This document shows positions 21,150 through 52,051 of a stretch of 64,000 bases of DNA, in pieces. A program made the translations under genes and the position numbers. This stretch comes from Bacteroidales bacterium (GTDB lineage: Bacteria > Bacteroidota > Bacteroidia > Bacteroidales > JAUNSR01). Below the pieces are notes generated by a model. That model had not been told where the DNA came from, ran no database searches, and saw nothing but the letters and a program-made list of their open reading frames with translations. The DNA lies in assembly GCA_030539115.1 (NCBI GenBank), contig JAUNSR010000003.1:25359-89358 (forward strand), written 5' to 3'. Positions within the stretch are counted from its first letter, which is position 1, and each line of letters begins with the position of its first letter.

Positions 21150-22364
21150 CTATTGAAAAGGTGCAAGAAACAACATTATATCGCTCCAAGGTAAATTAAA
21201 ATGCTCACCAACAAATTTATTTACAATCTTCCCGTTATATATATATACTCCGTTTCTAAAGTTCCTCTCTTTTCTCATATGGTCATTTATATTCCCTGAA
21301 TCTGCTATTTTTATCAACAGAGGCAGGCAATGATTGCTTAAAGCTATGGATGTGGTTCTTGCCACCCTTGAACTAATGTTCGGAATGCAATAATGTATTA
21401 CTCCGCACTGTTCATAGAGAGTCTCTTTCATTGAATCAGGACAGACAGAAGTTTCAAAGCAACCACCTTGGTCAATACTTAAATCGATTATCAGAGCACC
21501 TTTCTTCATATTTGCTATCATATCTTCCGATACAATAAATTTTTTTTCCCCATTTTCAAATCTAAGAGTACCAATAACAATATCTGCAGACTTAAAAGCA
21601 TTTATCAAAACGTTCGGATGAAGAGTTGATGTGAATGTCGATGGAGAAACAAAAGTTTGTATTTCTCTAAGCAAATCAATATTATTGTCAAATACCTTAA
21701 CTAAAGCGCCCAAAGCATCGGCAGTTCTTGCCGCCTCTCTTCCCGCTCTCCCTGCTCCAATGATTACTATTTCCGTAGGAGTAACTCCCGGACATCCCCC
21801 AAGCAAAATTCCTTTTCCGCCATTGGTATTAGTCAGAAGTTCTGCCGCCAGCACAATTGCCGTCTTACCTTCAATTTCAAGTATTGAATTAATTATAGAA
21901 TGCTTATTTTGTGAGTCTGATATTAGTTCAAGAGAAACTGCATTTATTCTCTTTTCTGTGATTTTCTCAAGTGCTTCTTTTGAGAACATAGAAAGCTGCA
22001 GGAAAGAAAGAAATGTAGATTTGTTTTTCATCATTTTCACCTCGTTTGCACTTGGTGGAGCAATTTTAATAACGATATCACACTGCCAAATTTCTGCAAT
22101 ATCTTCACAAACCAAGGCTCCTGCCTCACTGTAAGCCAGATCCGAATAAAAGACATATTCTCCTACTCCTTTTTCAATAAAAATTTTGTGACCCATTGAA
22201 GTCAATATTTTCACTGATTCGGGAGTTAAAGGCACTCTTCTTTCAAACTCTCCATTTTCTTTAGGGATTCCAATGGTTAAGAAAGAATTTTTCTCCTCCT
22301 TAATATACAATTTTTCCTGTGGAACAATCGATTCTGAAGCGAAAGTCATAAGTGTCTTTTTCAT
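21150..22364 (-). CDS. AlaDH/PNT-family NAD(P)-dependent dehydrogenase (alanine dehydrogenase-like)
   Basis: IGIPKENGEFERRVPLTPESV N-terminal domain and Rossmann motif VIIGAGRAGREAA. Confidence 0.7.
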   Translation of the reverse strand: MKKTLMTFASESIVPQEKLYIKEEKNSFLTIGIPKENGEFERRVPLTPESVKILTSMGHKIFIEKGVGEYVFYSDLAYSEAGALVCEDIAEIWQCDIVIKIAPPSANEVKMMKNKSTFLSFLQLSMFSKEALEKITEKRINAVSLELISDSQNKHSIINSILEIEGKTAIVLAAELLTNTNGGKGILLGGCPGVTPTEIVIIGAGRAGREAARTADALGALVKVFDNNIDLLREIQTFVSPSTFTSTLHPNVLINAFKSADIVIGTLRFENGEKKFIVSEDMIANMKKGALIIDLSIDQGGCFETSVCPDSMKETLYEQCGVIHYCIPNISSRVARTTSIALSNHCLPLLIKIADSGNINDHMRKERNFRNGVYIYNGKIVNKFVGEHFNLPWSDIMLFLAPFQ

Positions 22365-22574
22365 TTGTATATATTTTATTTTCCTAACCGTTACCTCTAA
22401 GGTACAAATGCGCCATTTATATACCTTTTGTGGGGTATCTCTTCTTTTGGTGAGTTATGGCGGTTTCATTTGTATATATTTTATTTTCCTAACCGTTACC
22501 TCTAAGGTACAAATGCGCCATTTATATACCTTTTTGGGGGCATCTCATCTTTTGGTGAGTTATGGCGTTTTCAT
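22362..22574 (-). repeat. start-codon-abutting repeat, copies C1 and C2 (tandem doublet, 105-bp period)
   Basis: CAT (ATG on the gene strand) recurs at 22362-64, 22467-69 and 22572-74. The two units are near-identical to each other and roughly nine-tenths identical by eye to the units at 26193. Confidence 0.95.
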
Positions 22575-28648: not shown

Positions 28649-28693
28649 AAACACTCTAATATATTTAATGATATATTAGAGTGTTTTTATTTT
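28649..28693 (+). terminator. orphan strong hairpin terminator in the ybeY-mnmG spacer
   Basis: AAACACTCTAATATAT-TTAATG-ATATATTAGAGTGTTT is a perfect 16-bp stem followed by TTATTTT. It lies about 245 nt after the ybeY stop. Confidence 0.6.
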
Positions 28694-28925
28694 TATGAAA
28701 ATCAAAATTACAAAACAACTGATGAAAAAATTTCAGTTGAGAGTCTTATTAATAATATGCTTTGAAACGATCAATAAATGAAAGCTGAGCCACATTATTA
28801 ATAAAATAAAAAACGCCAGTTTAAACAGAACCTAAACATTATAAATGAGTTAATAATAATCTCTTTTAGGGCAATTTAAGTTGATTTGGGTTAACGGCAC
28901 AAAAGTTATTGTATCTTTGCATAAG

Positions 28926-28998
28926 ATATGCTTCACCTCATTAATGACAATTTGAAAGCTTACTCTTTCAATTGTTTATTGAATTGGGTTTGCAATAT
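28926..28998 (+). ncRNA. conserved hairpin RNA/leader element, copy 1 (upstream of mnmG)
   Basis: Preceded by the -7 box TATCTTTG (28912-28919). About 73 nt fold into a long interrupted hairpin (apical GAAAG/CTTTC). Homologous to 51137-51211 with compensatory pair changes. Confidence 0.45.
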
Positions 28999-29167
28999 AT
29001 TGGCATCATTATTAAATTTAGACATCTAAAGTTTAAAGTTTCAGTCATTAATTATCATACAATCCAAAACACATATAGTGATAGATGGAAAAGGCAAACA
29101 AGTCAATTTGCCTGAGATAATTCATGTAAAAAATAAAAAAGGTAATAAAAGAAAAGTATCAAAATAA

Positions 29168-31042
29168 ATGGATTTTAAATATGACGTTATAGTAGTTGGG
29201 GGTGGTCATGCGGGCTGTGAAGCGGCATGTGCTTCAGCTAACTTAGGTTCAAAGACCTGTTTGATTACAATGGACATGAATAAGATTGGCCAGATGAGCT
29301 GTAATCCCGCTGTTGGAGGTATAGCCAAAGGTCAGATTGTTCGCGAGATTGATGCATTGGGAGGATATATGGGAATTATCAGTGACAGGACTGCCATTCA
29401 ATTCAGAATGCTTAACCGTTCTAAGGGTCCTGCCATGTGGAGTCCGAGAAGCCAAGCCGACAGAGCAAAATTTATTGATACTTGGAGAGAGATGATTGAC
29501 AGTACGCCCAATCTAAATGTTTGGCAGGACACCGTCATAGAACTTATTCTTGAGGACGGCAGGGTCAAAGGACTTAAGACTTCAATGGGAGTGACTTTCC
29601 ATGCAGACTCGGTGGTTCTCACTTCAGGAACTTTCATGAACGGTCTTATGCATTTCGGCCGCACAAAGCTGCCGGGAGGAAGGATTGCAGAACCTGCATC
29701 TTATGGCATTTCCGATCAATTGAAGAATGCCGGAATTATCACCGGAAGAATGAAAACAGGAACTCCGGCAAGAATTGACGGAAGAAGCATCGACTTTTCA
29801 TTGGCTGAAAAAAATGAAGGCGACAGCGATTTTCATAAATTTTCATATCTGAATTATCAGACTCCGATTTTGAAAGCCAGACCCTGCTGGACAATATATA
29901 CAAACGAAGAGTGTCATGAGGTTTTAAGAAGAGGACTTCCCGATTCGCCTCTTTATAATGGGCAGATCCAAAGTATCGGACCCCGCTATTGTCCAAGCAT
30001 CGAGACAAAGATTGTAACTTTCCCTGACAAGACAAGACATCAGCTTTTTCTTGAGCCGGAGGGTGAGACAACAGAGGAATACTACATAAATGGATTTTCT
30101 TCTTCTCTTCCTTTGGATATACAGCTTGAGGCTTTAAAGACAATACCTGCTCTTAGAAATGTGGTTATTTATCGTCCCGGCTATGCAATAGAATATGATT
30201 ATTTTGATCCAACTCAACTTAAACATTCTCTTGAAACAAAAGCTGTCGGGGGTCTTTTCTTTGCAGGGCAAATAAATGGAACCACGGGTTATGAAGAAGC
30301 GGGCGGTCAAGGGTTAATTGCAGGTATCAATGCTCACCTTAAAGCTCACAAAAAGGATCCGTTTATTCTTGGACGTGAAGAGGCTTACATAGGAGTCTTG
30401 ATTGATGATCTTGTAACCAAAGGTGTGGATGAACCATACAGAATGTTTACTTCCAGAGCAGAGTATAGAATCCTGCTTCGTCAGGATGATGCTGACATGA
30501 GGCTTACCGAAAAATCATATAAACTTGGATTGGCTTCAAGAGAGAGATACGATCTTCTTGTAGAGAAGAAAGAACATCGAGACAGAATAATCGAGTTTTG
30601 CCGAAACTATTCCATCAAGGCTTCTTATGTAAATGACGAGCTTGAGAAATATAATACTGCAACATTAAAAGACGGATGCAAACTCATAAGTCTTGTTGTA
30701 AGACCTCAGCTTTCGCTTGAAATAATCAGTTCCTTTGTCCCCGCTCTTAAGGCTGAAATAGAAAAGATACCAAACAGGAAAGAGGAAATAATTGAAGCAG
30801 CAGAGATTTTGATGAAGTATGAAGGCTATATTGAAAGGGAAAAGATGATCGCCGAAAAGATTTCAAGACTTGAAAATATCCCTATTAAGGGCAGATTCGA
30901 ATATGATTCAATCAAGTCGCTCTCTACTGAAGCAAGACAAAAGCTGACCCGAATTGACCCGGAGACAATTGGTCAGGCATCAAGAATTCCCGGAATTTCG
31001 CCAAGTGATATAAATATATTATTAATTTTACTGGGAAGATAA
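29168..31042 (+). CDS. mnmG: tRNA uridine-5-carboxymethylaminomethyl(34) synthesis enzyme MnmG (GidA)
   Basis: [19 protein letters not shown] motif, GPRYCPSIE, and 624 aa. Confidence 0.95.
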
Positions 31043-51088: not shown

Positions 51089-51136
51089 ATAACAACGATT
51101 TAGCTTATTTACTTATCTTTGTATATCTTTAAATAA

Positions 51137-51211
51137 GATAAGCTTCGCCTTATCAAATACAATCTGAAAGCTGGCGCTTTCAATTGCTTATTGAACTCGG
51201 CTTGCATTATC
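51137..51211 (+). ncRNA. conserved hairpin RNA/leader element, copy 2 (upstream of dapB)
   Basis: Homologous to 28926-28998 with the same fold. TATCTTTG lies at 51114-51121 and the aligned TATCTTTA at 51124-51131. Confidence 0.45.
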
Positions 51212-51334
51212 TTTGAAAAAGAAAATGAAGCATTTAAAAAATAGAATCAATTTAAAAAACTAATATATTTGAAGTCCGTTCTTATTTTTTAAAATATTCA
51301 GACATTACAAATTAGATATTTAAAAACTATATAT

Positions 51335-52051
51335 ATGAAAATTGCATTAATCGGATATGGAAAGATGGGGCACATCATCGAAAATATTGCTTTAACCCGC
51401 GGTCACGAAATCGTCGCTATCATTGATAAGGACAATCAAGAAGACTTCACTTCAGAGGCTTTTAAGAGCGCAGATGTTGCAATTGAATTTTCCATGCCCT
51501 CAGCAGCTTTGGAAAATTACCATAAATGCTTTGCTGCAAATATCCCTGTTGTTGCCGGCACTACCGGCTGGATAGATAAAATGCCGGAAATTAAGAATGC
51601 CTGCAAAGACGGTAAACAAACTTTCTTCTATGCTTCAAACTACAGCATAGGTGTAAATATCTTCTTTGAACTTAACAAACATTTAGCGCACATTATGAAC
51701 AACTATCCCGCTTATAATGTTCGCATGGAGGAAGTTCATCACGTTCATAAACTTGATTCTCCTAGTGGAACAGCAATTTCTCTTGCAGATGGAATAATAG
51801 AGAATATGGACTCTAAACAGGCTTGGGTTGAAGGTGTTGAACCAAAAGAAAATGAGATAGGCATTACATCTTTCAGAAGAGGTGAGGTGCCCGGCATTCA
51901 TACCATTATTTATGAATCGGATGTTGACACTATTTCCATTACTCACGATGCCAAATCACGAGAGGGCTTTGCCTTAGGCGCCGTTGTAGCGGCTGAATAC
52001 CTGAATGGGAAAAAGGGATTTCACACAATGGCAGATTTGATGAAATTTTAA
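51335..52051 (+). CDS. dapB: 4-hydroxy-tetrahydrodipicolinate reductase
   Basis: MKIALIGYGKMG, E.HH..K.D.PSGTA motif (EEVHHVHKLDSPSGTA). Confidence 0.9.
   Translation: MKIALIGYGKMGHIIENIALTRGHEIVAIIDKDNQEDFTSEAFKSADVAIEFSMPSAALENYHKCFAANIPVVAGTTGWIDKMPEIKNACKDGKQTFFYASNYSIGVNIFFELNKHLAHIMNNYPAYNVRMEEVHHVHKLDSPSGTAISLADGIIENMDSKQAWVEGVEPKENEIGITSFRRGEVPGIHTIIYESDVDTISITHDAKSREGFALGAVVAAEYLNGKKGFHTMADLMKF

Follow-up and report, generated by a model that had tools for sequence, protein, structure and literature searches.

Two unrelated genes in the window, the 64,000-nt stretch of contig JAUNSR010000003.1 (Bacteroidales bacterium, assembly GCA_030539115.1, positions 25,359 to 89,358) that was analysed as a whole, carry similar and foldable sequence upstream of their start codons, which raises the question of what kind of element this is. 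A sequence-only reading had aligned the two 87-nt stretches, proposed a promoter-plus-hairpin element upstream of mnmG and dapB, and listed an independent small RNA, a long structured leader and a hairpin-type extragenic repeat as options. Both stretches read as quoted there and align without gaps, with 70 of 87 bases identical. The two copies and their surroundings comprise the following parts.

28912..28998, + strand: repeat unit copy 1, a single, fairly diverged unit (nhmmer E 1.7e-17), whose last 3 nt (TAT) are the start of the next box
28912..28919, + strand: first box of copy 1, TATCTTTG (TAnnTTTG -7 type)
28912..28928, + strand: hairpin A, TATCTT / 5-nt loop / AAGATA, with the box inside (helix 1; 93% paired, three pairs changed on both sides)
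28929..28995, + strand: hairpin B, long and interrupted, with a closing helix, GCC/GGC-type and TCAA/TTGA-type helices and a variable apical stem-loop (helices 2-5; the same helices occur in other genomes)
28996..29003, + strand: terminal box position of copy 1, degenerate, TATATTGG
29168..31042, + strand: mnmG (Pfam GIDA), co-oriented gene downstream of copy 1
51114..51121, + strand: extra perfect TATCTTTG box, 2 nt 5' of copy 2
51124..51210, + strand: repeat unit copy 2, with its own box TATCTTTA (nhmmer E 6.1e-21)
51208..51215, + strand: terminal box TATCTTTG directly 3' of copy 2
51335..52051, + strand: dapB (Pfam DapB_N, DapB_C), co-oriented gene downstream of copy 2

The two copies in the window

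Both stretches adopt a common fold, a short 5' hairpin and a long, interrupted one that has a GAAAG/CTTTC apex but loops that differ between the copies (-19.2 and -20.0 kcal/mol, z -2.55 and -2.67). The three base pairs said to differ in a compensatory or compatible way are all as described: 28935-28989 is A-T in copy 1 and G-C in copy 2, 28929-28995 is T-A and A-T, and 28942-28981 is T-G and C-G. They correspond to pairs 26-83, 20-89 and 33-75, respectively, of the family-wide consensus structure, and the same alternatives occur at each in many other copies. The distance of 170 nt from the end of the copy-1 hairpin to the mnmG ATG (29168) was likewise recovered. The statement that both stretches begin with a TAnnTTTG-type box holds for copy 1 but not for copy 2, where the aligned box is TATCTTTA and perfect TATCTTTG boxes lie 10 nt upstream and directly after the unit.

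The first box of copy 1 is probably the resident -7 box of mnmG, because its left flank, aaaagttattg, matches the gaaa(g/c)ttatt(a/g) that congeners G006 and G008 have in front of their only TATCTTTG. From the last box to the ATG it is 119 and 164 nt at the two window copies, farther than in congeners, and the spacers between unit and mnmG or dapB are unique sequence in which no other repeat was found. At dapB three boxes accompany one unit (TATCTTTG, ta and the TATCTTTA that opens the unit at window positions 51114-51131, and a closing TATCTTTG). The sequence 5' of the first of these, tttacttatctttgta, resembles the 3' end of a unit plus box and may be the remnant of a lost upstream unit.

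A dispersed family of 84-bp units

BLAST of copy 1 against the window's own assembly (G000, 3.37 Mb in 89 contigs) gave dozens of matches, and iterated nhmmer identified 123 units at 64 loci, all intergenic, before unrelated genes and often in tandem. This disposes of a specific two-copy mnmG/dapB regulatory element and bears out the option of a hairpin-type extragenic repeat; the similarity of copies 1 and 2 is far above chance because the unit recurs about 123 times in the genome. Loci hold one (n = 26), two (n = 21), three (n = 14), four (n = 2) or five (n = 1) units, arranged head to tail with a period of 84 bp, adjacent units sharing TAT. These counts are minima, as several arrays contain 100-N scaffold gaps or lie at contig ends, and array lengths are underestimated because the repeat is a main cause of assembly breaks.

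Gaps of this kind lie within arrays on contigs C24 (6569-6668), C67, C73, C79 and C12, several contigs end in the repeat, and the short-read Logan contigs of the species that carry dapB all begin at window position 51188, inside copy 2. Apparent insertions of about 100 bp inside units were rejected, being runs of 100 N at scaffold gaps.

Mean identity between loci is 78%, and many pairs from different loci are more than 80% identical over 87 nt before unrelated genes. The nearest relative of a unit lies in the same array for 64 of 72 units, and some arrays are mixed (A-B-B-A or A-B-A-B). This pattern of nearest relatives shows that arrays grow mostly by local duplication and sometimes by the arrival of a different unit. 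A CRISPR-like reading, with about 53 conserved and 30 variable nt, was rejected: the variable centre takes the form of one type of hairpin throughout, and neighbouring units often have it in identical form.

Comparison with Rfam 15, GibS/FopS sRNAs and Bacteroides motifs included, gave no match at the gathering threshold in the 64-kb window and, with E up to 10 allowed around either copy, only chance-level ones (E 0.7-6), in agreement with the earlier failure to name an Rfam family. A full-text literature search found no description of a repeat that sits on a TAnnTTTG box and restores it, and the family could not be filed under any described one.

Unit anatomy and conservation of the fold

The unit consensus in this genome is TATCTTTGAATAAGATAAGCTTCGCCTCATCAAT-(variable hairpin)-CTTATTGAGTTCGGCTTGCAT, followed by the next TATCTTTG. 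Each unit consists of the -7 box TATCTTTG within the 6-bp hairpin A and the roughly 55-nt interrupted hairpin B, the ends of which are conserved while its apex varies. The 3' arm of hairpin B contains TTG or TTTG 20-21 nt upstream of the following box, the place for a putative -33 element. Between boxes lie 76 bp, the two ends of which are imperfectly complementary (AAGC..GCC with GGC..GC.T, helices 2-3), and there is no long clean TIR.

The structure tested on an alignment of 80 distinct units (A1) comprised hairpin A, the closing helix AGC with GC.T, the GCC/GGC and TCAA/TTGA helices and a 12-bp variable stem. Pairing reached 91.9% of cells in this alignment; column shuffles gave 85.0% and sliding the partner 26-50% (about 40%). 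The shuffle control ignores kinship among copies, so that independence is overstated. Both sides had changed in 19 of 28 pairs, in 153 cells where 50 were expected (kinship among copies uncorrected). The pairings first seen between two copies are thus preserved in the larger alignment, with covariation far stronger than a comparison of two copies can reveal. Three positions of the mnmG unit differ in another strain of the species, all of them in loops.

An RNA fold that is selected on one strand should tolerate G-U far better than A-C. Non-Watson-Crick cells were G-U in 33 and A-C in 39 cases among the units of this genome, and 8 and 10, respectively, among copies from other genomes. This symmetry indicates a DNA-level hairpin or cruciform, or mismatches that are under no selection, and points to selection on the fold at the DNA rather than the RNA level. 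The earlier argument for selection on the fold in RNA or single-stranded DNA therefore stands as regards fold conservation and covariation, but not as regards RNA; a DNA hairpin fits better. For the method this is a clean case in which covariation is present, yet G-U/A-C symmetry argues for a DNA hairpin rather than an RNA hairpin.

The palindromic TATCTT-N5-AAGATA and the conserved blocks could alternatively serve as operators that recur at 84-bp intervals (8 helical turns) and bind a dimeric regulator or a nucleoid protein. Such protein-binding-site arrays would account for the conserved palindromic motif, for sequence blocks that are strongly conserved even between families, and for the regular 84-bp period. 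However, the complementary double changes seen in hairpin A (TATTTT/AAAATA, TACCTT/AAGGTA, TGTCTT/AAGACA) alter both half-sites, which is tolerable for a hairpin but not for a fixed protein, and the variable centre covaries too. Operators would also leave the dispersal of the units and the empty sites described below unexplained, and we consider them very improbable.

Position relative to -7 boxes and genes

The promoter recognized by sigma-ABfr has TAnnTTTG at -7 and TTTG near -33, and the median 5' UTR of B. thetaiotaomicron is 32 nt (PMC7366714). Every array in this genome has one extra copy of the box at its 3' end, positions 1-7 of which are conserved at 82-96%. Among first and internal boxes here, 64-65% are a perfect TAnnTTTG, and among terminal boxes 47%. 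The seemingly sharp end of the terminal partial copy after position 18 was not relied on, being at least partly compositional (A/T-rich unit positions against A/T-rich flanks). Almost no -33 TTTG peak was seen upstream of first boxes, which says little, since genome-wide TAnnTTTG control sites, mostly non-promoter, had none to speak of either.

With gene positions taken from a crude ORF map, 23 loci lie in divergent and six in convergent spacers; in tandem spacers the arrays are co-oriented with the downstream gene at 21 loci and opposed at nine. A co-oriented ORF of at least 100 aa starts no more than 260 nt from the last box in 38 of the 57 arrays with an intact 3' end. Of 29 loci from other genomes, 26 have TAnnTTTG as terminal box, and 27 have a co-oriented ORF (at least 70 aa) that begins 1-196 nt downstream of that box, commonly at 8-35 nt. 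In those genomes the distance from terminal box to ORF fits that expected of a working Bacteroidales promoter.

Filled and empty sites

The congeners of this genome are distant (MnmG 81-83% identical). Four loci could nevertheless be compared with a congener that has a single -7 box.

engB-like: this genome has ...aaagtttgt TATCTTTG, 160 nt, TATCTTTG cataagaaatt..., then 32 nt to the ATG; congeners have a single box 23-44 nt before the ATG (G008 ...aaagtttgt TATCTTTG taaaag...; G007 ...TATCTTTG catatatac...)
hflX-like: this genome has ctttttatcta TATCTTTG, 244 nt, TATCTTTG tagaaatttataggagtg...; G001 has atttttatatc TATTTTTG taataataaggagtg...
radA-like: this genome has gaaaagaatgtag TATCTTTG, 160 nt, TATCTTTG aaaaatagga...; G001 has ggaaaataatag TATTTTTG aaaaaaaatagga...
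mnmG: this genome has the left flank given above, TATCTTTG, 76 nt, TATATTGG...; G006 and G008 have their single TATCTTTG about 30 nt before the ATG

At each of these loci, the sequences outside the array, to the left of its first box and to the right of its last, match those on either side of the single congener box, over short stretches of 7-18 nt. The simplest reading, for which this is good evidence and not proof, is that n x 84 bp were inserted at the -7 box, with the box now on both sides.

At the radA-like locus of congener G007 (L207), the resident box is followed by AATAAATAT, a hairpin-A-like palindrome (TATTTTTGAATAAATA), and the distance from box to ATG is about 90 nt, compared with 15 nt in G001. 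This palindrome may be a decayed unit that the covariance model missed.

Genomes G234 and G111 represent two species of one genus with alignable flanks. At one locus (L189/L200), G111 has only ...tatattatgc TATCTTTG taataaagtag..., where G234 has a unit and a box. G234 is exactly 84 nt longer than G111 at a second locus (L171/L205) and has one unit (75 nt) more at a third (L187/L202); in both cases the centre of the extra unit differs from that of the resident one. At a fourth (L184/L178), one hybrid unit of G111 takes the place of two units of G234.

Such differences might also arise if the repeat were a host promoter cassette (upstream hairpin, -33 and -7 elements) that is not mobile as such, was spread and homogenized by gene conversion, replication slippage or unequal recombination, and is kept for strong or insulated transcription. 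The predominance of local duplication in array growth would suit this reading, as would the exact one-unit gains and losses and the hybrid unit between G234 and G111, the promoter-like distance of terminal boxes from genes, and the lack of a transposase among the families tested (Y1 and IS110, see below). 'Putative mobile promoters' are moreover a known class whose mobilization is unexplained (PMC3575422). On the other hand, a unit reaching a naive promoter for the first time would find homology only in the 8-bp box, neighbouring units can have different centres, and roughly one box in three is imperfect, which would be surprising for a promoter under selection. The occurrence of the repeat is also patchy across families, and its absence from all eight congeners argues for gain by transfer or in bursts. 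A host cassette is unlikely on balance, though it deserves some weight.

Distribution in other genomes

Consensus BLAST against 40 relatives showed the repeat to be absent from the eight congeners. An exact-pattern scan with the conserved unit ends of this genome gave no matches in the contigs of other genomes, since relatives differ in those letters. A covariance-model search, the check put forward with the sequence-only reading, did yield further homologs: the model built from A1 found the same architecture in about nine of 300 other genomes of the order, belonging to several families. Distant families were found by this model only, and two congeners among the 300 genomes had no match. Distribution across Bacteroidales families is patchy.

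The consensus in other genomes is TATCTTTGnAnAAGATAGG..CGGCTCGGC-(hairpin)-CTCGCCTTTCACTAT, and some of these bearers also have tandem periods of 83-84 bp. Across families the helices are kept with other letters (GCC/GGC becomes GGC/GCC, TCAA/TTGA becomes GCAG/CTGC). Copies from other genomes are 89.9% paired, compared with 78.3% in shuffles, and 16 of 28 pairs have changed on both sides.

One unit lies on an unannotated 46-kb record labelled Phocaeicola massiliensis 'plasmid: 39' (OY726013.1, 16421-16510; L206), and a weak, 73%-identical match on an unannotated 4-kb faecal 'Bacteriophage sp.' contig (MT839815.1, 422-501). These records may represent transfer vehicles, or mis-binned chromosomal pieces.

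Units in RNA

RNA data were unstranded Logan metatranscriptome contigs that derive from relatives (G234), not from the species of the window, and may include carried-over DNA. At a three-unit array of G234, contigs run from the last unit into the gene; one run has coverage from within the array onwards and none 5' of it. At a locus with a single unit, one contig covers the gene and the whole unit up to the first box and nothing upstream. The summed word depth of the conserved part of the unit exceeds 300, compared with 13-46 for genes. To judge from these unstranded contigs, then, units occur in RNA and are joined to the downstream mRNA.

This lends some substance to the option of a long structured leader, in so far as the contigs of relatives suggest that long 5' leaders also come to include the unit. 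The unit is unlikely to be an independent sRNA: a terminator is absent, the next box follows immediately and the RNA contigs continue into the gene. The multicopy sRNAs FopS and GibS were rejected as relatives, the unit having two hairpins, no U-run, the next box directly after it and no Rfam match.

More generally, the family could be an RNA-level element whose fold is selected in RNA, either a cis-acting structured 5' leader module that stabilizes or attenuates, or a small-RNA gene that has a -7 box of its own. The box at the start of the unit, the conserved and covarying fold, the confinement of the three strain differences in the mnmG copy to loops and the presence of units in metatranscriptome contigs, at depths similar to those of genes, are all consistent with this. 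But G-U is about as frequent as A-C, so that there is no strand-specific tolerance of wobble pairs, and the 5' arm of hairpin A is the box itself and would be missing from RNA started there. Hairpin B is followed by the next box without a terminator or U-run, and contigs run from the unit into the gene. The 64 loci precede unrelated genes in variable tandem number and no Rfam family matches, GibS and FopS included. We regard a function selected in RNA as quite unlikely.

A probable mobile repeat on promoters

We consider the family to be a non-coding, MITE-like dispersed 'mobile promoter' repeat that lives on promoters, with a probability of roughly 0.6. Single units or head-to-tail arrays of the form [box-A-B]n-box lie directly upstream of co-oriented genes. 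New copies would insert at the -7 box, and the 8-bp box would be duplicated or regenerated in the process. With the box restored, the gene would keep its promoter and would gain either several stacked promoters or a 5' leader lengthened by hairpins. Propagation, rather than a function in RNA, would explain why the hairpins are kept, in that it would require a single-stranded or cruciform form of the DNA. Array growth proceeds mainly by local duplication, with exact units gained or lost.

A narrower version, which we put forward as tentative, holds that the repeat is site-specific mobile DNA that recognizes and regenerates TAnnTTTG via a hairpin or single-stranded DNA intermediate, using a putative enzyme that is neither Y1 nor IS110; genes would keep their promoters and acquire copy-number-variable stacks of promoters and leader hairpins. 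An 8-mer duplicate that is always the same is unusual for a transposase, and it could be an integral end of the element or a recombination product.

Two transposase families were tested as mobilizers and rejected, as neither is co-distributed with the repeat. Y1 transposases (PF01797; RAYT, IS200/IS605) are absent from this genome and from six of seven other bearers and are present in five of ten non-bearers. IS110 is absent from this genome and from most bearers and is uncorrelated with the repeat. No longer element with the same ends was found in this genome, where partial matches are contig ends, scaffold gaps or truncated units.

Relation to known repeat families

Like MITEs, the 84-bp repeat is small, non-coding, multi-copy and dispersed (123 units, 64 loci). 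Filled and empty sites at the four loci and between G234 and G111 suggest a flanking target duplication, which is atypical in always being the same 8-mer; no related autonomous IS with the same ends, as known for MITEs, was found, with Y1 and IS110 as the transposase families compared. The Correia/NEMIS elements of Neisseria are likewise small, non-coding, multi-copy and intergenic, form a hairpin via imperfectly complementary ends, have duplicated target flanks, carry promoter elements and end up in 5' leaders. The 84-bp repeat has no sequence similarity to them. It duplicates the whole 8-bp -7 box rather than TA, occurs in head-to-tail arrays, has no known parent IS or transposase, and carries a promoter box of the sigma-ABfr type (TAnnTTTG).

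Putative mobile promoters (Matus-Garcia, Nijveen and van Passel 2012; PMC3575422) are highly similar upstream sequences before non-homologous genes, within a genome and across families. The 84-bp repeat shares this property, and many of its copies from different loci reach the 80% identity over 50 nt or more that is required there. That class is heterogeneous and defined only by similarity between -150 and -50 (PMC3575422), whereas the 84-bp repeat has a fixed anatomy with a conserved fold, joins its surroundings exactly at the -7 box and is amplified in tandem.

REP/BIME sequences with RAYT, and REPINs, resemble it as high-copy, clustered extragenic palindromes that maintain a hairpin and are probably recognized as structured DNA. 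Unlike these, the 84-bp repeat lacks a GTAG/CGTC head and starts with TATCTTTG, is 84 rather than 20-40 bp long, is arranged in direct tandem instead of inverted, and lies upstream of genes and not at their 3' ends, and Y1 is absent. Repeats of the MIRU, BOX and ERIC type are also intergenic, with tandem copy numbers that vary between strains or species, and have unrelated sequences. BrickBuilt of P. gingivalis is reportedly a Bacteroidales MITE that contains a minisatellite with an internal repeat of 23 bp; its sequence is unrelated as well. We know of no report that MIRU, BOX, ERIC or BrickBuilt sits on a promoter box and regenerates it.

Implications

If the reading of the junctions is true, the repeat would be mobile DNA that targets and restores a core promoter element, a cheap way of spreading through essential intergenic space. 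Many unrelated genes share an upstream module whose copy number varies, from which fast changes in expression might arise in gut Bacteroidales, and the unit may serve as a natural compact promoter cassette for Bacteroidales genetics. On the practical side, the repeat breaks short-read assemblies, and it is an annotation hazard in that scans may mistake it for riboswitch-like leaders or sRNAs.

Other repeats and hairpins in the window

A second, unrelated repeat of about 105 bp occurs at window positions 22362-22574 (minus strand) and genome-wide (215 units by iterated nhmmer). Like the 84-bp family of the same genome it is small, structured and multi-copy, but its sequence differs, and the two are adjacent at only two loci. 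The spacer between ybeY and mnmG is unusually long, 760 nt here compared with about 20 nt in two congeners. It also contains a perfect 17-bp hairpin, AAACACTCTAATATATT / TAAT / GATATATTAGAGTGTTT, with a T-run after it (window positions 28649-28686). In another strain of the species, TTAATG at 28665-28670 reads CGTTAA, a block change centred on the loop of this hairpin.
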